From contig LBUA01000001.1 in the NCBI GenBank assembly GCA_000992345.1, positions 13,542-77,541 of the forward strand: a stretch of DNA of 64,000 bases, in the 5' to 3' direction. A program made the position numbers and the translations under genes. A model generated the notes under the pieces. It was not told where the DNA came from. It saw nothing but the letters and a program-made list of their open reading frames with translations, and made no database searches. Below are positions 3,032 to 59,977 of the stretch, piece by piece; within the stretch, counting starts at the first letter, position 1, and every line of letters starts with the position of its first letter. Origin of the DNA: Parcubacteria group bacterium GW2011_GWD2_38_12. GTDB lineage: Bacteria > Patescibacteriota > Minisyncoccia > GWC2-36-17.

Positions 3032-5165
3032 TAAAATTATGTATACTTGTCCAATGCATTTAGAAATTATCAGAGAGCTTCCCGGAGAATGTCCAAAATG
3101 CGGGATGAAACTTGTTGAGAGTAAAGAGGGTAAGGGGAAGAGTAAAGAGATGGGTTACGAAAGTCGCGCTTTAATCGACAGTGCGCGACACGATTCTGCA
3201 GAATCGCATGCAGGGCATAAGGCCGAAGATTTTTTGAAAAAGTTTTTAGTGAGTTTGGCGTTGACCATACCAGTTTTATTTTATTCTGATGTTATTCAGA
3301 AATTGATTGGTTGGTCACCACCGAGTTTTTACGGGTCGCAATATCTTGCTTTTATTTTAAGCTCTTTTGTGTTTTTTTACGGCGGTTTTATTTTTTTGCG
3401 CGGCGCTTTCTCAGAATTAAAAGCGCGACTTCCCGGAATGATGACTTTGATTACGATTGCAATTTCTGTCGCGTATCTCTATAGCGTATTTACGGTGTTT
3501 TCCGGCAAAGGCGAAAATCTTTTTTGGGAATTGACCACCTTAATCACAATAATGCTGCTTGGCCATTGGATTGAAATGCGAGCGGTTCAAGGCACCGAGA
3601 AAACATTGAAAGAATTGGCAAAACTTTTACCGGATAAAGCAGAGGTGGTAAAGGGCGCGCAAACGGAAATTATTTCGCTCAGCGAATTAAAGTTTGATGA
3701 TATTGTTTTTATAAGGCCCGGAGGGAAAATTCCGGCTGATGGAGCTGTGATAGAGGGAAAATCAGACGTTAATGAATCAATGATTACCGGAGAATCAAAT
3801 CTAGTAGAAAAAACAATCGGTAGCGAAGTAATTGCCGGCACGATAAATAGCGACGGCGTTTTAAAGGTAAAAATTACTAAAATAGGAGAGCAGACTTTTT
3901 TGGCTGGCGTGATGCGCTTAGTATCTAGCGCTCAAACATCAAAATCGCGCTTACAAATATTATCTGATAGAGCCGCATTTTACTTGACTCTTGTGGCTAT
4001 TATTTCCGCAATCACGACATTTTTTTTGTGGTTTTTTATAGGAGGAAATTTGGTTTTTGCCATAGAAAGATTCGTTGTTGTGCTTGTAATTGCCTGCCCC
4101 CACGCTTTGGGACTTGCCATTCCGCTTGTTGCATCAATCTCCACATCGCTTGGCGCAAAAAATGGTTTATTGATCAGACAGCGTCTTGCGCTTGAAGCCG
4201 CTAGAAAAATAGATATTGTTCTATTTGATAAGACCGGCACCTTAACTAAAGGGGAATATGGCGTTGAAGAAATTTTCCCCATAAAAGCCGATCAAGATAC
4301 GATTCTTCATTTGGCGGCATCAATTGACGCTTATTCCGAGCATATGGTGTCAAAAGCCATTGTCAGGAAATTCAAGGAAAAAAATAAAGCGTTTCTTGAG
4401 GTAAAAGACTTCACTAGAGTTCCCGGCAAAGGTGTTAGAGGAATTATAAACAAAGAAGAAGTGTTGGCTGGAGGAGCATCTATTTTGGACGATGAAAAAA
4501 TTATTGTTGCGGAAAATACAAAAAAAATAATTGAAGAAGAAAGTAAAAAAGGCAGAACAATTATTTTTGTTATTAAAAATAAAGAAATTTTAGGGATAAT
4601 ATCGCTTGGCGATGTGGTGCGCGAAGAATCAGAAGAAGCAGTTTTACAACTTCAAAATATGGGCGTGAATGTGGCGATGATTACCGGGGATTCGGAAGAT
4701 GTTGCCAGATGGGTGGCAAAAGATTTGGATATTAGCGAGTATTTTGCGAAAGTTTTGCCTCACGAAAAAGTGGAGAAAGTAAAAATTTTACAATCAAAAG
4801 GCTTTAAGGTGGCGATGGTCGGAGATGGCATTAATGATGCGCCGGCGTTGACCCAGGCAGATTTGGGTATTGCCATTGGCGCCGGGACAAATGTGGCGAT
4901 TGAATCTGCGGGAATTATTTTAGTAAAAAATGACCCTCGCGATATTGTAAAAATAATTAAACTTTCCAAAGCCACTTATCGTAAAATGATACAGAATTTA
5001 TTCTGGGCGACTGGATACAATATTGTGGCTTTGCCATTAGCAGCCGGTATTTTGGCATCAAAAGGGATATTGCTTCAGCCAGCATTAGCGGCATTATTTA
5101 TGTCGGCAAGCACCATTATTGTCGCCGTGAATGCAATGTTTTTGCGACGATCAAAATTTGATTAG
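3024..5165 (+). CDS. Heavy-metal (copper) translocating P1B-type ATPase with an N-terminal CxxC...CxxC zinc-ribbon metal-binding domain
   Basis: DKTGTLT phosphorylation motif, TGES, GDGINDAPAL, membrane CPH motif (IACPHALGLA), and N-terminal YTCPMH...GECPKCGM ribbon. CPH instead of CPC suggests the CopB-like P1B-3 subgroup. Confidence 0.9.
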   Translation: MNNKIMYTCPMHLEIIRELPGECPKCGMKLVESKEGKGKSKEMGYESRALIDSARHDSAESHAGHKAEDFLKKFLVSLALTIPVLFYSDVIQKLIGWSPPSFYGSQYLAFILSSFVFFYGGFIFLRGAFSELKARLPGMMTLITIAISVAYLYSVFTVFSGKGENLFWELTTLITIMLLGHWIEMRAVQGTEKTLKELAKLLPDKAEVVKGAQTEIISLSELKFDDIVFIRPGGKIPADGAVIEGKSDVNESMITGESNLVEKTIGSEVIAGTINSDGVLKVKITKIGEQTFLAGVMRLVSSAQTSKSRLQILSDRAAFYLTLVAIISAITTFFLWFFIGGNLVFAIERFVVVLVIACPHALGLAIPLVASISTSLGAKNGLLIRQRLALEAARKIDIVLFDKTGTLTKGEYGVEEIFPIKADQDTILHLAASIDAYSEHMVSKAIVRKFKEKNKAFLEVKDFTRVPGKGVRGIINKEEVLAGGASILDDEKIIVAENTKKIIEEESKKGRTIIFVIKNKEILGIISLGDVVREESEEAVLQLQNMGVNVAMITGDSEDVARWVAKDLDISEYFAKVLPHEKVEKVKILQSKGFKVAMVGDGINDAPALTQADLGIAIGAGTNVAIESAGIILVKNDPRDIVKIIKLSKATYRKMIQNLFWATGYNIVALPLAAGILASKGILLQPALAALFMSASTIIVAVNAMFLRRSKFD

Positions 5166-6634: not shown

Positions 6635-6675
6635 AAACTAAAACCGTCCGCCTAAGGCGGACGGTTTTAGTTTTA
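6634..6675. terminator. Bidirectional rho-independent terminator between convergent genes
   Basis: Perfect hairpin aaaaccgtccgcc-TAAG-ggcggacggtttt flanked by A/T runs on both sides. Confidence 0.8.
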
Positions 6676-20954: not shown

Positions 20955-21075
20955 CAAATTTTAGAGCTGAAAGCGAATAAAATTTGGTTACAAAATCTTA
21001 CCCTGTTAAATTCCCGCGAAGCGGGGGCGCCGAAGGCGCATTTAACAGGGTGTGCTGGGCTTTGCGATTGTTTAA
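20955..21075 (+). repeat. Family-1 structured repeat element, copy 1 (shorter variant), directly upstream of the GT4 gene
   Basis: Shares about 50 nt of 5' extension with copy 2 (ttttagagc.gaaagc.aataaaattt) and the nested hairpin core cttaccctgttaaat-[ccccgcGAAGcggggg]-[cgccGAAggcg]-catttaacaggg. Confidence 0.7.
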
Positions 21076-21092: not shown

Positions 21093-22199
21093 ATGATTAT
21101 TGGAATTCACAGTGTAGCTGCTTTTAAACCGCACAAAACCGGCGTTGAAAAATACGCTAAGAGATTAGTTGAGAATATGGCGATGCTTCCGGAAGCGAAG
21201 GAGCATCGTTTTATTTTGTATACAAATAAACAGAATCAATCTACTGTTACGGAAAGAATAAAGAATCAAGATTTGCCAGAAAATTTTTATTTGAAAATTT
21301 TGAAGTTTCCGTTTTTGTGGACGCAAATAAGACTAGCGGCGCATTTTATTTTTAAAAAACCCGATGCTTTTTTTGTTCCAGCTCATATTTTGCCGATAAT
21401 ATCGCATCCCAAAAACTCCACAGTGATGATTCACGACATTGCTTTTGAATTATTCCCCGAGGCGTATCCATTGTTTCATAGAAAATATTTGCGATTTACC
21501 ACAAAATACGCGCTAAAACACGCTGAAAAAATAATCGTGCCATCGGAAAGCACAAAGCAAGATATTTTGCGTTTTTATAAATGGGTGGACGAGAAAAAGA
21601 TTTTTGTTGTTTATCACGGAATGGAGTATAAACTGCTTGATTTAAAATTCTCCGAAGCACCACTCAATTTCCCCTATTTTCTTTATATCGGGAGATTAGA
21701 GTTTAAGAAAAATATTCTCGGAATTTTGCGGGCGTTTGATTTGTTTAAAGCGCAGTATAAATCTACGCACAAATTAGTGCTTGCCGGCGGTTTGGGTTTT
21801 GGCGGCGAGAAAATAAAAGAAATGGCGGCAAAACACAGATTTAAAAATGATATAATTTTAACAGGGTTTATTTCCGAAGAAAAAAAAGAAAATTTGTTTG
21901 TCTCTGCCGATATATTTTTGTTCCCATCTCTTTATGAGGGTTTTGGTTTTCCGATCTTGGAAGCGCAAGCTTTTGGCGTTCCAGTAATAACTTCATGTAT
22001 CTCTTCTATGCCTGAAGTATCCGGGGAGGGGGCTATTTTGGTTAATCCTCATAAGCCAGAAGAAATTAAAGATGCTATAATCAGGATTTTAATTGATGAA
22101 AGCTTGCGGAAAAATCTGATTGTAAAAGGCAGGGAAAATTTAAAAATATTTTCCTGGCAAAATTGCGCCCGAGAAACTTTAAGAATTATAACCGATTAA
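21093..22199 (+). CDS. Glycosyltransferase family 4 (GT-B, retaining)
   Basis: EX7E-type C-terminal motif region FPSLYEGFGFPILEAQAFGVPVITS. Confidence 0.8.
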   Translation: MIIGIHSVAAFKPHKTGVEKYAKRLVENMAMLPEAKEHRFILYTNKQNQSTVTERIKNQDLPENFYLKILKFPFLWTQIRLAAHFIFKKPDAFFVPAHILPIISHPKNSTVMIHDIAFELFPEAYPLFHRKYLRFTTKYALKHAEKIIVPSESTKQDILRFYKWVDEKKIFVVYHGMEYKLLDLKFSEAPLNFPYFLYIGRLEFKKNILGILRAFDLFKAQYKSTHKLVLAGGLGFGGEKIKEMAAKHRFKNDIILTGFISEEKKENLFVSADIFLFPSLYEGFGFPILEAQAFGVPVITSCISSMPEVSGEGAILVNPHKPEEIKDAIIRILIDESLRKNLIVKGRENLKIFSWQNCARETLRIITD

Positions 22200-37256: not shown

Positions 37257-38132
37257 TTGTTCTCTTCGCGATTGTCTCGCAATTACAGTAAAAATTATAA
37301 TTTCTCGGGTAGATCCCCAATAAAATCGCGAAATTCAATATGGCGGACGGTTGTTAAATTTGTATATATAGTTTTGCCCATAATTATTATTGTATTTGGA
37401 GTATATTTTTTTATTTTTTCCGATTTTTTCAAAATCAAAGAAATTGTGGTTAGAGGTAATAGTTATGTCGTCAGCGCGGCCATAGTGGATGCATTTCAGA
37501 ATATATTTGCGGAAACGAAATTGTTATTTTTGAAAAATAACAATTTGAATATATTGAATTCTCAAAGCGCAGAGCAAGAAATTAAAGATAAATTTCCGAG
37601 GATAGAAGAAGTAAGCATAGAAAAACAATGGCCGGATAAAATTATTGTGGTCATCAAAGAGAAAGAAGCAGTGGAGATATTGTGCAAATCAAAAAATGCC
37701 TCTGTTTCCGATTTTTCCGTTGCTAATTTTTCCGACTGTTTTTTTATTGATAAAAACGGCATTGCTTTTGACAGAGCGGCTGACACTCAGGGATTTTTAA
37801 TTCTAAAAATTCTGGATAATAGGGGAGTTGATATTGGGCTGGATAAAAAATCGTTAAATACGGAATTTTTGAATTTTGTCAGAGACTTAAAAAATAACTT
37901 TGACGATTATTTGAATTACAATATAAAATTAATAGTCCTCGATCATTCGGCGCAAAGAGAGGTTTCTGCTCTAATTGATAATTGGCGGGCGATATTTGAT
38001 GTTTCCGGAGACGCAAAGAAACAGCTTTTTGTATTGAGGGAGGTGTTGGAAAAAGAAGTAAAAGATCAAAAAGACAAGTTGGATTATATTGATTTAAGAG
38101 TTGAGGGCAGAGCGTATTATAAGCTAAAATAA
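37257..38132 (+). CDS. FtsQ/DivIB-like cell-division protein (TM helix plus POTRA domain)
   Basis: Single N-terminal TM helix, followed by a POTRA-like IKEIVVRGNSYV... segment. Confidence 0.5.
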   Translation: MFSSRLSRNYSKNYNFSGRSPIKSRNSIWRTVVKFVYIVLPIIIIVFGVYFFIFSDFFKIKEIVVRGNSYVVSAAIVDAFQNIFAETKLLFLKNNNLNILNSQSAEQEIKDKFPRIEEVSIEKQWPDKIIVVIKEKEAVEILCKSKNASVSDFSVANFSDCFFIDKNGIAFDRAADTQGFLILKILDNRGVDIGLDKKSLNTEFLNFVRDLKNNFDDYLNYNIKLIVLDHSAQREVSALIDNWRAIFDVSGDAKKQLFVLREVLEKEVKDQKDKLDYIDLRVEGRAYYKLK

Positions 38133-48034: not shown

Positions 48035-48198
48035 AAATTTTAGAGCAGAAAGCAAATAAAATTTAGATAGTAAATCTTAACCTTGTTAAATCCCCGCGGA
48101 GCTGGGGCGCCAAAGGCGCATTTAACAGGGTACTCGATTTTGAAATAAAATTTTGCGCACTCCGCAAAGCTTCGTTTCAAAATTTCGATAAAATCGGC
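48035..48198 (+). repeat. Family-1 structured repeat element, copy 2 (full length); its last three bases are the ATG of the downstream gene
   Basis: About 85% identical to 53725-53871. Nested hairpins: ccttgttaaat/atttaacaggg enclosing ccccgc-gga-gctgggg and gcgcc-aaa-ggcgc, then ttttgaaat...[tttgcg-cactc-cgcaaa]...cgtttcaaaa, then ..aaaatcggcATG. Confidence 0.75.
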
Positions 48199-48684
48199 AT
48201 GTATGAGATTTATAAATTTTTACATGGAATTGGAATTTTAATGACTGTTGGCGTGATTACCGCGTCGCTTATTTACGGTTGGTATAAAAAATTATTCCCA
48301 AATAATAAATTATTAACCAAAATCCAATTTCCATATAAGTGGATATCTCCGTCGGTGAAAATTGGCCTTGTTGTTTTAATTATTTCCGGCCTTGGGATGT
48401 ATGCGGAGAGAGCGGAACAATTCAATAGTTCGGCGGTTTTTTGGATAAAAATGGGTTTTGTTTTGGCGCTTGTAATAAATAATATTTGGTTAAACAGCAT
48501 TTTAAAACCAAAAGGCAAAAAGATATTTTCCGATCCAGTTCTTGCCAATTCGCCGGAAGCCTTAAAACTTAAAAAGACATTTAATTTTGCAGAAAATCTG
48601 TCTTTATTTTTATGGTTCACAACCATGATTGTAAGTTTTCTTTTGCCTGAGGGCCGTGAAGAGCGCGGAGGAAGAGAATTTTAA
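48199..48684 (+). CDS. Hypothetical membrane protein (4 TM)
   Basis: ORF with TM helices. The start codon is supplied by the upstream repeat element. Confidence 0.4.
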   Translation: MYEIYKFLHGIGILMTVGVITASLIYGWYKKLFPNNKLLTKIQFPYKWISPSVKIGLVVLIISGLGMYAERAEQFNSSAVFWIKMGFVLALVINNIWLNSILKPKGKKIFSDPVLANSPEALKLKKTFNFAENLSLFLWFTTMIVSFLLPEGREERGGREF

Positions 48685-49916: not shown

Positions 49917-49987
49917 TGCGGGATCGTCTAATGGTAGGACTCCGCCCTTTGAAGGCGGCTATCTTGGTTCGAATCCAGGTCCCGCAG
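49917..49987 (+). tRNA. tRNA-Gln (anticodon UUG), CCA not encoded
   Basis: Manual cloverleaf: acceptor TGCGGGA/TCCCGCA (U1-A72, G73 discriminator as in bacterial tRNA-Gln), D-arm GTCT-AATGGTA-GGAC, anticodon arm CCGCC-CTTTGAA-GGCGG, T-arm CTTGG-TTCGAAT-CCAGG. Confidence 0.85.
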
Positions 49988-51306: not shown

Positions 51307-52017
51307 TTATAGAAGTGATAAAAATTCTTCCAGTTCTTTTCCGATAATTGGCCTTATTTTATTAGGTTTGAGATTACCAAGGCGTATGTTCATAATGCGA
51401 ATTCTTTTTAGATCTGCGACTGCATACCCAAGCGCTCCGCACATTCTTCTGATTTGATGTTTTTTGCCTTCCGTCAGGATTATTCTAAAAGTAAAGTTAT
51501 TGATGCGACTAATTTTGCATTTCTTTGTTCTATAACCATCAATATTCACACCCTCGCTCATGCGTTTGAAAAAACTCGGCTTCAAGGGAGTTCTAACATT
51601 TACGATATATTCTTTTTCGTGATTATATTCAGGACTCAAGAGTTTTTCGGTGATGCGACCATCGTCCGTGAGGATTATTAATCCCTCAGAATCTTTATCA
51701 AGGCGACCCATAGGGAAAATATGTGTATTTAACAAAAAATCGCGAATGCTTTTTTCGTTCATTTGCGGGCTGTGAGTAATAACGCCGCGAGGCTTATTAT
51801 AGGCGATATAAGAATATTTTCTATTCGCTATATCTCTTGGTATTTTTACATCATCTCCTTCGTTGACCATATCGCCAAGCACGGCAATTTTACCATTTAT
51901 AAATACATTTTTTCTTCTAATCAGATCATCAGCCCCTCTGCGGGTCGCGAGGTTATGTAGAGCCAGATATTTATTTATCCTTATTGGATAGGATATTGAT
52001 TTTGAATTTTTAAGCAT
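51307..52017 (-). CDS. rRNA pseudouridine synthase, RsuA/RluB family (S4 domain plus catalytic domain)
   Basis: N-terminal S4 (IRINKYLALHNLATRRGADDLI), catalytic motif GRLDKDSEGLIILTDDG, and C-terminal KxYxV region. Confidence 0.85.
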   Translation of the reverse strand: MLKNSKSISYPIRINKYLALHNLATRRGADDLIRRKNVFINGKIAVLGDMVNEGDDVKIPRDIANRKYSYIAYNKPRGVITHSPQMNEKSIRDFLLNTHIFPMGRLDKDSEGLIILTDDGRITEKLLSPEYNHEKEYIVNVRTPLKPSFFKRMSEGVNIDGYRTKKCKISRINNFTFRIILTEGKKHQIRRMCGALGYAVADLKRIRIMNIRLGNLKPNKIRPIIGKELEEFLSLL

Positions 52018-52121
52018 ATTATTTTATACATTATTTTTATAAACTTGTAAACTAAGGGATTTTACTAAAAAAAGTTATATGTTATAATGATTGTATTAAT
52101 AATTAATACACTTGTAAATTT

Positions 52122-52190
52122 ATGGCGAAAGGAAACAACGCTCAAAGAAAAGAAAAGAAGAAACCGAAAAAGGATAAGAAAAAGAAGTAG
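52122..52190 (+). CDS. Possible tiny Lys-rich ORF (22 aa, MAKGNNAQRKEKKKPKKDKKKK). Speculative.
   Basis: ATG ORF downstream of a TATAAT-like box (ttatatgttataatg). No SD. Confidence 0.15.
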   Translation: MAKGNNAQRKEKKKPKKDKKKK

Positions 52191-52229
52191 TTTTAATTAC
52201 CCTTTTTAATTACAAAACCTATTAGGGGG

Positions 52230-52258
52230 TTGACAAAGCTAAGAAAGTTGTATATTAT
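52230..52258 (+). promoter_or_regulatory. Near-consensus sigma70-type promoter (TTGACA-N15/17-TATATT/TATTAT) driving the DEAD-box helicase leader
   Basis: ggggttgacaaagctaagaaagttgtatattattg. Confidence 0.5.
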
Positions 52259-52340
52259 TGGGGAATTAAGAAATAACAAAGTATCAAATATCTCACTGAG
52301 GCCGCGCTAATTATTGCAATATTGCAATTACTCTTAGAAA

Positions 52341-52376
52341 ATGTCGCAGGATTCCGTGCGACATTTTGCTTTTTTG
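52341..52376 (+). terminator. Intrinsic terminator/attenuator hairpin inside the DEAD-box helicase 5' leader. It is followed by GGAGG and a 16-codon TTG uORF.
   Basis: atgtcgca-ggattccg-tgcgacat followed by tttgcttttttgg, then ggaggttgtttaaagac... Confidence 0.55.
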
Positions 52377-52445
52377 GAGGTTGTTTAAAGACTTTTTTCG
52401 TAGCGATTGCAGTAGAAAAGCGAGTTTTTAAATAGCTTCAGCGGT

Positions 52446-53636
52446 ATGTATAGAAATAACACTCGCCACGGCGAGGGTTCGTTTGGTAGATTTTCCGGCA
52501 ATAGAAAGCGACCAGCGCGTCGCGCGCGTCGCGGTCAAAATATTGATGTTTCAAAATTCATCAATAAAGCGGTCATAACCGAAACAACAGAACATTTTGT
52601 TCCCGAACATTTGTTCGCTGATTTTAATATTGATGCTCGCTTAAAAGCGAATGTCTTAGCTAAAGGATATAATACTCCAACTCCGATTCAGGATAAATCA
52701 ATCCCGCATATTTTGCGCGGATCCGATATTGTGGGTATTGCCAATACCGGAACCGGGAAAACCGGAGCATTTCTTGTTCCTCTTATTCAGAAAGTATTGA
52801 TAAATCATAAAGAAAAAGTTTTGATTATCGTGCCGACTCGCGAATTGGCTTTGCAAATTGATAAAGAATTCAAGAGTTTTGCCAGGGGATTGAATATGTT
52901 TTCCGTGTGTTGTGTCGGCGGCGCGCCTATCGGCAAACAGATTTCTGAATTGAGATATTATAATCATTTCATAATCGGTACCCCGGGCAGATTGAAAGAT
53001 TTGGCTCAAAGGGGCTTTATATCTTTTCCTCAGTTTTCTGCGATTGTCTTAGATGAAGCGGACAGAATGCTTGATATGGGATTTATTGATGATATGAAAT
53101 TTATAATGTCTAAGATGCCCGAGAAACGCCATACGTTATTTTTCTCGGCGACAATGTCTCGAGAAATTGAAGCGCTTATTAAAAATTTTCTACGCGACCC
53201 GATATCTATCTCGGTAAAAACCGGAGATACTCCAAAAAATGTTGATCAAGATATTGTGAGGGTATCGGCGGATAATAAAATAGATATATTGCATAATCTT
53301 CTGAAGAATGAAGAATTCAGCAAGGTGTTGATATTCGGCAGAACAAAACATGGCGTGGAAAAATTATCCGAGATACTGATTGCACGCGGATTTAAAGCGG
53401 AGTCAATCCATGGAGACAAAAATCATGCTAAGAGACAACGGGCCTTGGGACTTTTTATTGATAATCGCATTCAGATTCTTGTTGCTACTGATGTGGCGGC
53501 GCGCGGATTGGATATCCCCAATGTGAGCCATGTCATTAACTACGATATTCCTGCCGCGTACGAAGATTATGTTCACCGCATTGGTCGAACTGGTCGCGGC
53601 AATAAAAAAGGCAAAGCGCTCACATTTATTGGATAA
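52446..53636 (+). CDS. DEAD-box ATP-dependent RNA helicase with an Arg-rich N-terminal tail
   Basis: Q-motif, Walker A ANTGTGKT, DEAD (VLDEADRMLD), SAT and HRIGRTGRG. Confidence 0.9.
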   Translation: MYRNNTRHGEGSFGRFSGNRKRPARRARRGQNIDVSKFINKAVITETTEHFVPEHLFADFNIDARLKANVLAKGYNTPTPIQDKSIPHILRGSDIVGIANTGTGKTGAFLVPLIQKVLINHKEKVLIIVPTRELALQIDKEFKSFARGLNMFSVCCVGGAPIGKQISELRYYNHFIIGTPGRLKDLAQRGFISFPQFSAIVLDEADRMLDMGFIDDMKFIMSKMPEKRHTLFFSATMSREIEALIKNFLRDPISISVKTGDTPKNVDQDIVRVSADNKIDILHNLLKNEEFSKVLIFGRTKHGVEKLSEILIARGFKAESIHGDKNHAKRQRALGLFIDNRIQILVATDVAARGLDIPNVSHVINYDIPAAYEDYVHRIGRTGRGNKKGKALTFIG

Positions 53637-53724
53637 GGGCTTCGTCTAAAATTTGAATCCGCCCAGTCTCGATTTTTCTTGAAAAATCGAGGATGCTCAA
53701 TTACAAAGTAATCGGCACTGGCGG

Positions 53725-53868
53725 AGCACAAATTTTAGAAACAAAACCTTACCCTGTTAAATCCCCGCGAAGCGGGGGTGCGAAAGCGCATTTAACAGGG
53801 TGCTCATTTTTGAAACGAAATTTTGCGCACTCCGCAAAGCTCCGTTTCAAAATTTTGACAAAATCGGC
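53725..53868 (+). repeat. Family-1 structured repeat element, copy 3 (full length); it ends at the ATG (53869) that most likely starts the ABC-F gene
   Basis: cttaccctgttaaat-[ccccgcGAAGcggggg]-[tgcgAAAGcgca]-tttaacaggg ... ttttgaaacg-aaat-[tttgcg-cactc-cgcaaa]-gctc-cgtttcaaaa-ttttgacaaaatcggcATG. Confidence 0.75.
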
Positions 53869-55377
53869 ATGTCGCAAAATGCAAAGCCCCGTAGCGAACG
53901 AAGTTCTGCTGCAGGAGAAGTTATAATCAGATTTGATGAAGTGTCTTTTGAACACGGACCCCAAAAACCCATTCTTGAAGAGGTGGGTTTTTCGGTGCGT
54001 AGAGGAATGAAAGTCACGCTGATGGGGCAAAATGGCGCCGGAAAAAGCACTATTTTTCAACTCATTACCGGAGCGGCAAAACCCGAATCAGGCGCGGTGC
54101 ATATCGGGTCGGATATTATTGTCGCTATTTCGCGGCAAGTAATTCCTCGCGATCAGTTGGATTTAACAGTGCGGGAATTTTTTGAGAAATGTTTTGATAA
54201 AAAAGTTTACGATATAGATCCTAAAATTGATGAGGTGTTGGAAGTGGTGAATTTAAAAGGCCACGAAAAAATGCACAAAAGGATTATTAAGTCATTTTCC
54301 GGCGGTCAGCAGGCGCGGCTTCTTTTGGCGTCGGCGCTCATTCAAGATCCCGATGTATTGCTTCTTGATGAGCCGACCAACAATTTGGATAAAGCCGGTA
54401 TCGCGCATCTGACAAATTTTTTAGTTAATTATAAGAAGACTTGTATTGTTATTTCTCACGACGCGGATTTTCTCAACGCTTTCACGCAGGGCGTTTTGTA
54501 TCTTGATATATTTACTCGCAAAATAGAACAATATGTCGGTAATTATTTTGATGTGGTGAAACAAATCTCTGTTCGAATAGAAAAAGAAAATAGAAAGAAT
54601 GCGTTATTAGCAAAAGAGATTCAGGAGAATAAAGACAAGGCAAACTTTTTTGCGCACAAAGGCGGACGTATGAGGTTGCTCGCTAAACGTATGCGTGAGA
54701 AAGCCGAGGAGATGGAAGAAGAAAAAGTTGATGTGCGAAAAGAAGATAAACCCATCAGGCCGTTTATTATTCCTTTCCAAGAGGATTTGATAGGGGAGAT
54801 TATAAATATCTCATCTTTCACGACGATGAAAAATCATCAGCCAGCAGAACACAAAGCCAAAATTTCAATGAAGAAAAATCAGCACTTGCTCTTATCCGGC
54901 CCCAATGGCATCGGCAAAAGCACATTACTAAAATCCATCGCCAAAGGTACTGTAGGGGGCGTGGCGATTGCCCGAGGTGTCCGCGTCGGGTATTATTGCC
55001 AAGACTTTTCTACGCTTAATTTTGATGAAACTGTTTATGAATCGCTCGTGTCGGCGATGGAGAAAGCGACCGGAAAAAAAGACGATGAATTCATCCGTGC
55101 TATCGCTGCGAGTTTTATGATTAGAGGTGATATGGTTTATTCTAAAATCGGCAGTTTGTCCGAAGGGCAAAAGGGGCTCGTTGCTTTTGCGCGACTGGTA
55201 ATTCAAAAACCCGGCCTTTTGATACTTGATGAGCCAACCAATCACATCAATTTTCGCCATTTACCAGTCATCGCTGGAGCGCTCAACAAATACGACGGCG
55301 CGATGATTCTCGTCAGCCATGTCCCCGAATTCGTCTCCCAAATCCGCATTGATGAGATATTGGATTTAGAGAAATAG
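53869..55377 (+). CDS. ABC-F family ATPase (tandem ABC domains, no TMD; ribosome-associated EttA/Uup-like). Start placed at the ATG supplied by the repeat; the annotated ORF extends upstream to 53800 through the repeat.
   Basis: Two Walker A motifs (GQNGAGKST; GPNGIGKST), two signatures (FSGGQQARLLLASAL; LSEGQKGLVAFARL) and an inter-domain linker with a charged arm. Confidence 0.85.
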   Translation: MSQNAKPRSERSSAAGEVIIRFDEVSFEHGPQKPILEEVGFSVRRGMKVTLMGQNGAGKSTIFQLITGAAKPESGAVHIGSDIIVAISRQVIPRDQLDLTVREFFEKCFDKKVYDIDPKIDEVLEVVNLKGHEKMHKRIIKSFSGGQQARLLLASALIQDPDVLLLDEPTNNLDKAGIAHLTNFLVNYKKTCIVISHDADFLNAFTQGVLYLDIFTRKIEQYVGNYFDVVKQISVRIEKENRKNALLAKEIQENKDKANFFAHKGGRMRLLAKRMREKAEEMEEEKVDVRKEDKPIRPFIIPFQEDLIGEIINISSFTTMKNHQPAEHKAKISMKKNQHLLLSGPNGIGKSTLLKSIAKGTVGGVAIARGVRVGYYCQDFSTLNFDETVYESLVSAMEKATGKKDDEFIRAIAASFMIRGDMVYSKIGSLSEGQKGLVAFARLVIQKPGLLILDEPTNHINFRHLPVIAGALNKYDGAMILVSHVPEFVSQIRIDEILDLEK

Positions 55378-58132: not shown

Positions 58133-58262
58133 GGGTCTTTTTCGTAAGTATTAACTATATAATAGCAAGCGCTTGTAAAAAGTCAATAGTCAGTAAAATG
58201 CCTTATTGCATCTATATTTTATAATGTTTTGATAAGTAAAAATTTAAAAAATATATAATAAA

Positions 58263-58296
58263 AATGCGATGATTTACCGCCATCGCATTTTTTTGT
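58263..58296 (+). terminator. Strong rho-independent terminator 2 nt before the helicase start codon
   Basis: atgcgatg-atttaccgcc-atcgcat followed by ttttttt. Confidence 0.7.
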
Positions 58297-58297
58297 T

Positions 58298-59977
58298 ATG
58301 ATATGGGCTATGAAACAAAATACGGCTCTCAAAATTTTAAAAACGGGACGGAATGTGTATTTGACCGGTGCTCCAGGGAGCGGAAAGACGCATATTTTAA
58401 ACGAATATATAAACTATCTGAGAAATCACGGCATTTCTGTTGGCGTGACCGCTTCCACTGGTATCGCGGCGACGCACATTGGTGGCGTTACGATTCATTC
58501 TTGGTCCGGTATGGGAGTGAAAGATTTTTTATCCGACGATGATATCTCGTATATCGTGCATAAAAAATATTTGCAAAAGCGTTTTGATAAAACGCGAGTG
58601 CTTGTCATTGATGAAGTTTCAATGCTGAGCCCCAAGATACTCGACAATGTTGATCGGGTGTGTCGCGCGGCGAAAGGAAATCAAAATCCTTTTGGCGGAA
58701 TGCAAGTTGTGCTTTCCGGAGATTTTTTCCAATTGCCTCCGATTACGCAGGGTGGCTCTTCTGTGCAATTTGTAAATACTTCTCGCGCGTGGAAAGAAAT
58801 GGACATTCGCGTTTGTTATTTGGACGAGCAATTCAGGCACGAAGATAACACGCTGGAGGCGATATTAAATGAAATGCGCGGCGGATTTGTCTCGCAAAAA
58901 ACGCGGGATGTTTTGGCGAGCCAATGCGAGAAAAATTTTGCAAATGGTATAGCGCCGACGCGGCTCTATGCGCACAATATTGATGTGGATATTCTTAATG
59001 AGAGGGAACTTGCCAAATTGCCGGGCGAAGCGCAAGAATTTGAAATGCAAATAAAAGGCAAAGATATTCTTGTTAAATCATTGAAGAAAAGCATATTGGC
59101 GCCGGAATTTTTGAAATTAAAAAAAGACGCCGTAGTGATGTTTGTAAAAAATAATTTTGATGCGGGATATGTGAATGGCACCTTAGGGATTATTGATGGA
59201 TTTGATAATGATGGCGCGCCGATTGTACGTTTATTTTCCGACAAAAAAATTACCGTGTTACCGGTCCAGTGGGCTGTTGAAGAAGACGGTAAAATATTGG
59301 CGAGAGCAGAACAATTGCCGCTTCGCCTCGCGTGGGCGATTATTACCATCCACAAAAGCCAAGGGATGAGTATGGATGCGGCCGAAATTGATTTATCCAA
59401 GGCGTTTGTGCCCGGGCAAGGATATGTGGCATTGTCGCGCTTGCGAACGCTCGCCGGGCTTGTGCTTTTGGGGATGAACGAAATGGCATTTGCTGTGCAT
59501 CCGGAAGTCGCGACGCTTGATAGGAGTTTGCTTTTGAATTCGGAAAAATGGGAGCAGGAAATAGCGCAATTTGACAATGACAAACTCCGTATAATGCACA
59601 AAGATTTTATTTTGAAATTTGGTGGCACGACAGATGAAAAAGAAATAGCAAAAAATAAAAATAAAGAAAAAGAAAACAGTAAAGACCGCGTCTCTACCCA
59701 CGAGAAAACAAAAGAGTTTGTGAATTTGGGATTGTCTCTCGCTGAAATCGCGAGCGGCAGAGAGATGACTATAGGAACAATCATTTCTCATTTGGAAAAA
59801 CTCAAAGAGCTCGGAGTGGAAATGAATTTTGAAAAATTTAAACCCAATGAAAGCGATTTAAGAAAAATAAAAGAGGCGTTCGCGGCGACCGGCGACACAA
59901 AACTATCTCCCGTCCACCGCCTTCTTTGCGGAGAATATTCCTACGACGACATCCGCCTAGCGCGATTATTTTTATAA
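58298..59977 (+). CDS. Pif1/RecD-like superfamily-1 DNA helicase with a C-terminal HTH domain
   Basis: Walker A GAPGSGKTH, VIDEVSML, QLPPI, and C-terminal LAEIASGREMTIGTIISHL. Confidence 0.85.
   Translation: MIWAMKQNTALKILKTGRNVYLTGAPGSGKTHILNEYINYLRNHGISVGVTASTGIAATHIGGVTIHSWSGMGVKDFLSDDDISYIVHKKYLQKRFDKTRVLVIDEVSMLSPKILDNVDRVCRAAKGNQNPFGGMQVVLSGDFFQLPPITQGGSSVQFVNTSRAWKEMDIRVCYLDEQFRHEDNTLEAILNEMRGGFVSQKTRDVLASQCEKNFANGIAPTRLYAHNIDVDILNERELAKLPGEAQEFEMQIKGKDILVKSLKKSILAPEFLKLKKDAVVMFVKNNFDAGYVNGTLGIIDGFDNDGAPIVRLFSDKKITVLPVQWAVEEDGKILARAEQLPLRLAWAIITIHKSQGMSMDAAEIDLSKAFVPGQGYVALSRLRTLAGLVLLGMNEMAFAVHPEVATLDRSLLLNSEKWEQEIAQFDNDKLRIMHKDFILKFGGTTDEKEIAKNKNKEKENSKDRVSTHEKTKEFVNLGLSLAEIASGREMTIGTIISHLEKLKELGVEMNFEKFKPNESDLRKIKEAFAATGDTKLSPVHRLLCGEYSYDDIRLARLFL

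Follow-up and report, generated by a model that had tools for sequence, protein, structure and literature searches.

A conserved box and hairpin in the leader of a DEAD-box RNA helicase gene from groundwater Parcubacteria

Introduction

The DEAD-box RNA helicase DeaD of Escherichia coli is autoregulated through its long 5′ UTR, by way of mRNA stability and decay and by premature Rho-dependent termination (PMC7430678). The deaD leader is 838 nt long, its termination depends on Rho, and it has no defined small motif (PMC7430678). The locus that we describe here resembles deaD/csdA in that a strong promoter and a structured 5′ UTR of unusual length precede a DEAD-box helicase gene. Control of deaD/csdA acts after initiation, in part by premature termination, with negative feedback exerted by the helicase, whereas for the present locus such control is only proposed. 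The leaders also differ in kind: those described here measure ~85–210 nt and carry an intrinsic-terminator-like hairpin together with an invariant box, and they have no sequence similarity to that of deaD.

Two other systems offer points of comparison. In the S10 operon leader of E. coli, the attenuator that responds to L4 places a sequence-specific hairpin and U-tract tens of nucleotides before the first start codon, and from the work of Zengel and Lindahl this hairpin is reportedly both a protein-stimulated terminator and a translational operator; it differs from the helicase leader in protein, sequence and phylum. RNA chaperones of the CspA family melt terminator hairpins 5′ of the genes of the cold-shock regulon, to which a helicase typically belongs. 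The helicase locus shares with this cold-shock system the presence, in some related loci, of adjoining genes for cold-shock-domain (CSD), RRM and ABC-F proteins. However, antitermination by Csp proteins is not sequence-specific, whereas the hairpin and box described here are invariant, and no similarity to the cold box of cspA-type 5′ UTRs was seen in the leader. The cis-regulatory families in Rfam, further, have the same pattern of a short, conserved structure in the 5′ UTR that goes with one gene family.

CPR/Patescibacteria are not culturable alone, their translation initiation is atypical, and organisms of aquifers live at near-constant low temperature. To our knowledge, almost nothing is known about how these bacteria regulate their genes. 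Here we analyze the leader of a DEAD-box helicase gene within a 64,000-nt stretch of DNA (hereafter, the window) that belongs to a metagenome-assembled genome (MAG) of the Parcubacteria (CPR/Patescibacteria), with Rifle groundwater as the sampling site.

Results

A strong promoter and a structured leader precede the helicase gene

The features of the locus are collected in Table 1. A protein identical to the helicase of the window is encoded in GCA_000991445.1 (LBRN01000001.1) and in Rifle groundwater metagenome contigs. The start codon of the gene (ATG 52446) is validated by the conservation of N-termini among orthologues: nine of ten begin with ATG-TAT/TAC/TTT (Met-Tyr or Met-Phe) and the remaining one, L123, with ATG-AAC (Met-Asn), and a basic or RG-rich tail follows this dipeptide in each of the ten orthologues examined.

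Table 1. Features of the helicase locus, with positions numbered from the first nucleotide of the window.
Feature	Position	Strand	Description
Pseudouridine synthase gene	51307–52017	−	Divergent gene 5′ of the helicase
Sigma-70-type promoter	52230–52258	+	TTGACA 52230–35, 17-nt spacer, TATTAT 52253–58; 11/12 consensus positions
Box 1	52290–52306	+	ATCTCACTGAGRCCGCG / ATCTCACTGAGGCCGCG; 17-nt linear element, near-invariant in the alignment of leaders
P2	52313–52328	+	Small optional hairpin (AUUGCA...UGCAAU), found by folding; originally read as direct repeat ATTGCAATATTGCAATT (52313–29)
Core hairpin	52338–52367	+	AAAAUGUCGCA-G-G-AUUC-C-G-UGCGACAUUUU; 11-bp stem plus G-C pair closing an AUUC loop; ~−16.4 kcal/mol
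U-rich tract	52368–52375	+	GCUUUUUU / UUUUGCUUUUUU; directly 3′ of the hairpin, terminator-like tail
GGAGG	52376–80	+	String match; zero spacing to TTG 52381
TTG-initiated 16-codon ORF	52381–52431	+	String match; stop 14 nt before helicase ATG
P3	52377–52439	+	Optional 63-nt hairpin; −23.3 kcal/mol, z = −4.19
DEAD-box RNA helicase CDS	52446–53636	+	396 aa, RG-rich N-terminal tail; Pfam DEAD 3.6e-46, Helicase_C 1.3e-33
ABC-F type ATPase gene	ATG 53869	+	Gene 3′ of the helicase

In the window, as in L033, L034, L035, L155 and L160, the helicase gene is followed immediately by the ABC-F ATPase gene. In L035 a cold-shock-domain gene (4852–5052) comes next after this pair, and in L158 (1–1909) an RRM-protein gene and an ABC-F gene lie 5′ of the helicase; taken together, the helicase, ABC-F, cold-shock-domain and RRM genes form a small cluster related to RNA and the ribosome. 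The divergent intergenic region of the window also holds a lysine-rich mini-ORF, MAKGNNAQRKEKKKPKKDKKKK (52123–52191), preceded by a promoter-like sequence at 52061–52088 (TTTACT, 16-nt spacer, TATAAT, with an upstream TG). This mini-ORF has no Pfam match, is not present in the orthologous loci, where the neighbors differ, and is probably a by-product of A-rich sequence.

The original prediction for this locus placed a near-consensus promoter ahead of a long, structured helicase 5′ UTR, and both claims hold. All 11 distinct leaders that we compared carry TTGACA, a spacer of exactly 17 nt and TA[TC][TC]AT (TATTAT, TATCAT or TACTAT) at the same relative place, and the interval 52264–52460 folds at −53.6 kcal/mol (z = −3.46 against shuffles). 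The strings on which the prediction was built (promoter, hairpin, GGAGG, ORF, repeat and ATG) had likewise all been located correctly. Reckoned from the promoter, transcription is predicted to start at ~52264, which gives the helicase a 5′ UTR of ~181 nt; measured in the same way from the conserved promoter, the predicted 5′ UTRs of the relatives span 83–209 nt. Promoter-like sites show no local enrichment (10 found against 10.7 expected), and a single terminator-like site is by itself equally unremarkable. The promoter and the hairpin are therefore significant because they are conserved in relatives, and not as matches in a single sequence.

Neither a promoter-like site nor a conserved −10/−35 arrangement was found between the hairpin and the helicase ATG, and transcription of the helicase must therefore pass through the hairpin. 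Leaderless transcription from a promoter 3′ of the hairpin was considered and rejected on this ground, as no conserved −10/−35 arrangement is present there. A search of the window for further copies of the leader, as would mark a dispersed repeat, found none.

Box 1 and the hairpin are shared by the leaders of related helicase genes

Loci for comparison were gathered from one-genome-per-species contigs, by exact-protein look-ups of homologues and by a metagenome scan with a degenerate hairpin pattern. The leader is shared by 10 other distinct sequences (listed as L001, L031, L032, L033, L034, L035, L062/L160, L065, L123, L155 and L157); with the window, the comparison thus covers only 11 distinct sequences, all of them related, and the distribution to date is one clade of groundwater Parcubacteria. 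Identity of the helicase protein to that of the window runs from 64 to 91% across the set, the value of 64% coming from a 72-aa fragment and the nine complete genes spanning 68–91%; the closest relative is L031, at 91–92% protein identity. The genes 5′ of the leader differ from locus to locus, which assigns the leader element to the transcription unit of the helicase.

The original prediction hinged on whether relatives keep the hairpin, and they do: 26–30 of the 30 bases of the hairpin core are identical to those of the window, as against 25–61% identity at four-fold degenerate codon positions of the helicase gene, a difference that indicates strong selection on the nucleotide sequence. In the window, an inner hairpin (ATGTCGCAGGATTCCGTGCGACAT at 52341–64) has its stem extended as AAAAUG...CAUUUU (52338–67) and is followed by GCTTTTTTGG; four of the 11 stem pairs of the core are G-C. 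The orthologous leaders share the hairpin AAAAUGUCGCAGGAUUCCGUGCGACAUUUU, of which the apical part, GGAUUCCG, is invariant.

Box 1, which the original prediction had missed, always lies 5′ of the hairpin in the orthologous leaders, with the hairpin beginning 15–45 nt 3′ of it, and it occurs once in the 64-kb window. Judged from the alignment, the true unit is box 1 plus the hairpin, and the two other hairpins of the leader, P2 and P3, are optional, lineage-specific insertions. The first of these had been described as a direct repeat. The string is there, but it is more than a repeat: its two copies of the palindromic 8-mer ATTGCAAT fold together into the small hairpin P2, which among the relatives is found in L032 and L157 only, with different loops.

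In the more distant helicase orthologues L002–L004, L158 and L159 (58–73% identity) the motif was not found; their leaders, which also have no Shine-Dalgarno site, carry other hairpins. The metagenome scan, made with GTCGCNGNATTCCGTGCGNC, returned at least 119 matches, nearly all of them chance matches in GC-rich coding DNA, and among the matches listed only L061, L062, L065 and L123 are genuine. An identical 20-mer (GTCGCAGGATTCCGTGCGAC), with one extra C-G pair, is present in L082 (1385–1404) and L085 (1891–1910), ~30 nt 5′ of a gene that by eye is cysteine-synthase-like, in an unrelated metagenome organism. This 20-mer was rejected as a copy of the motif, as it comes with no box 1 and no U-run and at a frequency close to chance expectation. 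Also a coincidence is the 8-mer ATGTCGCA at the ABC-F start (53869), where the orthologues carry ATGGCGCA, ATGGCACA or ATGACG.

The hairpin resembles an intrinsic terminator and lies close to most start codons

The terminator-like hairpin and U-run of the original prediction are present, with the same geometry in relatives. As predicted from the sequence, the hairpin has the properties of an intrinsic terminator, namely a stem within 5–14 bp that contains G+C, a short loop and an adjacent U-tract, and its form (A-tract, stem, U-tract) matches that of the genome's own hairpins after gene ends in the window, among them those at 6667, 14704, 32708, 51290 and 58138 (−16.4 kcal/mol, compared with −11.7 to −23.1 kcal/mol). 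Counted over the 12 nt that start 3 nt inside the 3′ arm, U residues number 7–9 in nine of the ten complete leaders; the leader of L065, which ends at the U-tract with its contig, was left out of this count. The exception is L123, which has five U in 12 and no U-run though it keeps the hairpin with a longer stem, which speaks against termination as such being what is conserved. Conserved alternative pairing that would sequester a terminator arm, as expected of an attenuator, was not found in the leaders. With regard to the temperature sensitivity that the original prediction raised as a possibility, the predicted leader structures are identical at 12 and 37 °C.

The reading that we favor, tentatively and with confidence somewhat short of even, is that the interval comprises the promoter and the ~181-nt 5′ UTR of the helicase mRNA, and that its core of box 1 and hairpin is a factor-responsive attenuator or operator serving feedback control. 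The hairpin and U-tract would form a premature intrinsic terminator (an attenuator), with a very strong promoter on its 5′ side and, on its 3′ side, a start codon that has no Shine-Dalgarno site, and a trans-acting factor that recognizes the invariant sequences would set the efficiency of this terminator. The most economical candidates for such a factor would be the helicase, acting on its own leader, or else a different RNA chaperone or RNA-binding protein, and the outcome would be feedback control of the helicase level. We infer termination, the identity of the factor, the direction of regulation and the start of transcription all from sequence. In leaders that have no P3, 5–17 nt separate the AUG from the 3′ strand of the stem, which is often extended, and the hairpin thus probably also limits ribosome access; attenuation and effects on translation or stability may coexist, as in the S10 leader.

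Alternatively, the hairpin could be a translational or stability operator and not a terminator, occluding or defining the landing zone of the ribosome or protecting the transcript from RNases, with translation tuned by a protein bound to box 1 and the loop or by a helicase that melts the stem. We consider this less likely than attenuation but a serious rival, and several features of the leaders agree with it. In all seven complete leaders that have no P3, the hairpin lies at a fixed 17–19 nt from the ATG (17 nt in L031), despite differing sequences in a spacer that is purely A/U. In five leaders (L033, L034, L155, L062 and L035) the stem is prolonged by 10–13 A/U pairs, to within 0–7 nt of the AUG, and compensatory changes are seen in these extended stems between L155, L062 and L033. 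Positions −15 to −1 have a predicted unpaired probability of 0.05–0.21 in six of the 11 leaders. Spacing and pairing of this kind fit a translational role at least as well as they fit an attenuator. Further, where P3 is inserted, or an unrelated second hairpin in L123, it is this hairpin that again ends 7–11 nt before the AUG, and L123 retains the core hairpin even though the U-run is gone. An operator accords less well with the AUG itself, which is predicted to be mostly open (0.4–0.8) except in L035 and L123, or with the window, L032 and L157, in which the core hairpin is equally conserved at 82–106 nt from the AUG; nor does it account for the U-tract of nine of the ten complete leaders.

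An operator would also suit a genome in which Shine-Dalgarno sites are rare. A strong Shine-Dalgarno-like match is found at 11% of the first starts of 54 putative genes in the window, compared with 10% of random positions, which fits the absence of an anti-Shine-Dalgarno motif from many Parcubacteria; a survey of CPR ribosomes detected this motif in only 48% of Parcubacteria (PMC9297842). The original prediction drew attention to the helicase ATG as having no good Shine-Dalgarno site of its own. This is true, and no evident one precedes any orthologous helicase start, but the special significance attached to it falls away: because the genome hardly uses such sites, one that is missing is ordinary and needs no special explanation. 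Plain A/T-rich sequence lies ahead of most gene starts in the window.

Box 1 has no conserved partner within the leader

Box 1 could fold on itself into a mini-hairpin of 3–4 bp (CUC-ACU-GAG). Pairing of box 1 with the 5′ arm and loop of the hairpin, with its 3′ arm and with the start region was tested, and none of these partners is conserved. Duplexes formed with box 1 were no better than those of shuffled boxes (z from −1.7 to +0.7 for the 5′ arm or loop of the hairpin) and inconsistent in register, and the idea of box 1 as an antiterminator or pseudoknot partner was rejected for these reasons. Only in the three leaders that possess P3 does box 1 seem to pair well with the 3′ end of this hairpin.

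In the sub-lineage of L001 (1862–1925) and L065, box 1 is triplicated, being accompanied by a first copy and by an inverted one. For the inverted copy there are two alternative partners, the first copy and box 1 (18 bp), and a C-to-U change in L065 is accommodated as a G-U pair; the triplicated arrangement is a possible extra switch. That the inverted copy of these two leaders can sequester box 1 suggests that box 1 acts as single-stranded RNA.

Two further readings give box 1 a regulatory role of its own. In the first, which we think unlikely, box 1 and the hairpin would make up a sequence-specific riboregulator peculiar to the CPR, either a binding site by which the cell's main DEAD-box helicase, or a partner RNA-binding protein, senses its own activity and sets read-through, or a dual-function leader whose premature termination would also yield a stable sRNA of 70–110 nt with box 1 as its seed. 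In the second, promoter, box 1 and hairpin would be the gene of an sRNA of ~70–110 nt, with box 1 as its seed and the helicase expressed by read-through. We regard this second reading as improbable, although an own promoter, an invariant single-stranded box and a terminator hairpin do resemble the parts of trans-acting sRNAs, and the inverted copy, or 'anti-box', of L001 and L065 could hold box 1 in an 18-bp hairpin. The best complement of box 1 elsewhere in the window, at 37466–37495 on the + strand (AGCGCGGCC plus UAGUG; −30.3 kcal/mol), is equalled in only one of 39 shuffled boxes. However, this statistic is marginal, the complement sits inside an ORF with an FtsQ/POTRA domain (an FtsQ-like coding region) and not at a start site, and the match is probably due to chance. 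Moreover, the element directly joins the helicase start in every case, with no promoter between, and its terminator sequence is invariant and not covarying as in typical sRNAs.

The conserved structure lies in the RNA

The core hairpin is the consensus fold of the alignment of leaders. When its flanking extensions are included, 80.9% of cells are paired, a value reached by none of 500 shuffles, and pairing falls to 33–52% once the partner columns are slid against each other; six pairs of the hairpin and extensions have changed on both sides. Covariation is slight in the near-invariant stem (double changes in two of the 16 pairs of the consensus fold), and stem pairs are kept through changes from U-A to U-G in three sequences and from A-U to C-G in L123. 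A covariance model of box 1 and hairpin, R1, scores 63–92 bits on the + strand as against 17–28 bits on the − strand. Together, the U-G wobbles and the strand asymmetry of R1 place the structure in the RNA of the + strand.

R1 exceeds 60 bits only upstream of these helicase genes; it found no second copy in the 64-kb window and none in the leaders of L002–L004, L158 and L159. A search of Rfam 15 (4227 models) matched no family to the leader, even at E-values up to 10, giving only noise at E ≥ 1.6. The sole Rfam match at gathering threshold in the window is a tRNA gene at 49917–49987.

The same data bear on a reading at the level of DNA, in which box 1 (as the palindrome TCTCA-C-TGAGA) and the hairpin (ATGTCGCA-N8-TGCGACAT) would bind transcription factors as DNA operators, with the bound factors acting as roadblocks. 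Each of the two is invariant and imperfectly palindromic; the compensatory and G-U-type changes in the extended stems and the strong strand asymmetry of the covariance model score nevertheless speak for RNA, and a location 3′ of the start site, at +26 to +100, would be unusual for operators, so that we consider DNA operators very improbable.

The segment downstream of the hairpin is an optional hairpin and not a conserved uORF

According to the original prediction, read-through of the terminator would lead to a perfect Shine-Dalgarno site and a TTG-initiated uORF of 16 codons whose translation is coupled to that of the helicase. The strings exist, and the stop codon of the uORF does lie shortly upstream of the helicase ATG (Table 1). 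Yet a Shine-Dalgarno site would be expected 5–10 nt before its start codon, and the GGAGG cannot serve the TTG because no spacing separates them. The segment is instead the stable hairpin P3, with GAGG and TTG in its 5′ arm and the stop codon of the 'uORF' in its 3′ arm.

P3 is found in only three of the 11 leaders, those of the window, L032 (z = −2.63) and L157 (z = −4.27), and its homologues carry compensatory changes; it is absent from L031 and seven other leaders, including L001, L033–L035, L062/L160 and L155. The check that had been proposed for the uORF, its conservation upstream of orthologous helicases, thus turns out against it, as it is absent in eight of the 11 leaders, the closest relative L031 among them. 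Even where P3 is present, neither the start, the frame nor the peptide of the uORF is conserved: in L032 and L157, ATT and CAG stand in place of the TTG, and the frame is shifted by an additional T, while the pairing of P3 is kept. Strains differ within the 216-nt leader at one position only, C52421T, which would be a non-synonymous change for the uORF and falls within the unpaired 2-nt bulge of P3. On this comparison of sequences, the uORF is not a conserved coding feature, and in a genome whose use of Shine-Dalgarno sites is at background level we find its coupling to helicase translation quite implausible.

A leader peptide starting at the ATG (52341) in the 5′ arm of the hairpin is scarcely credible: an ATG-initiated mini-ORF with MSQDSVRHF can be read in ten of the 11 leaders, but L123 has CTG for ATG together with a CAT-to-CAG change that preserves the stem, the C-terminus and the position of the stop vary, the ATG is buried in a stem of −16 kcal/mol, and the four four-fold codons are invariant except for CGA to CGG and yet residues are replaced (Q to P, D to Y), which places the conservation at the level of nucleotides and not of amino acids.

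Other structured elements in the window

Two further structured intergenic elements were observed. The first fills the 232-nt gap between the helicase stop codon and the ABC-F ATG (53637–53868), where the interval 53630–53880 folds at −90.2 kcal/mol (z = −6.95). This insert is absent from the orthologous loci, in which the gap measures 13–20 nt. Its 3′ 115 nt are repeated with 88.7% identity at 48084–48198, right up to the ATG of an ORF at 48199–48684, and a 63-nt core is repeated with 92% identity at 20990–21052, 5′ of an ORF at 21093 for a glycosyltransferase. In this core a long stem (CCCUGUUAAAU/AUUUAACAGGG) encloses a pair of short GC hairpins, and compensatory differences are seen from copy to copy. 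No Rfam family matched this repeat, which resembles a structured repeat dispersed between genes or a shared module of leaders.

The second element, at 58259–58297, is another terminator-like hairpin and U-run right before a start codon that has no Shine-Dalgarno site. The hairpin (AAAAAUGCGAUG-N9-CAUCGCAUUUUUUU; −13.3 kcal/mol) stops 6 nt short of the ATG of a gene for a PIF1-like helicase (58298–59977) and lies 3′ of the separate terminator of the preceding NYN-domain gene.

Discussion

The leader analyzed here adds a previously uncatalogued case to the regulatory 5′ UTRs of DEAD-box helicase genes, with a mechanism that we propose from sequence; as a general principle, such control is not new. 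Its conserved element is compact, comprising 17 nt of box 1 and 30 nt of hairpin, and would offer a tractable handle for in vitro transcription and binding as well as a candidate for a new family of cis-regulatory RNA. For the helicases, it broadens the idea of DEAD-box helicase genes controlled through their own 5′ UTR, which to date has been demonstrated mainly for E. coli DeaD.
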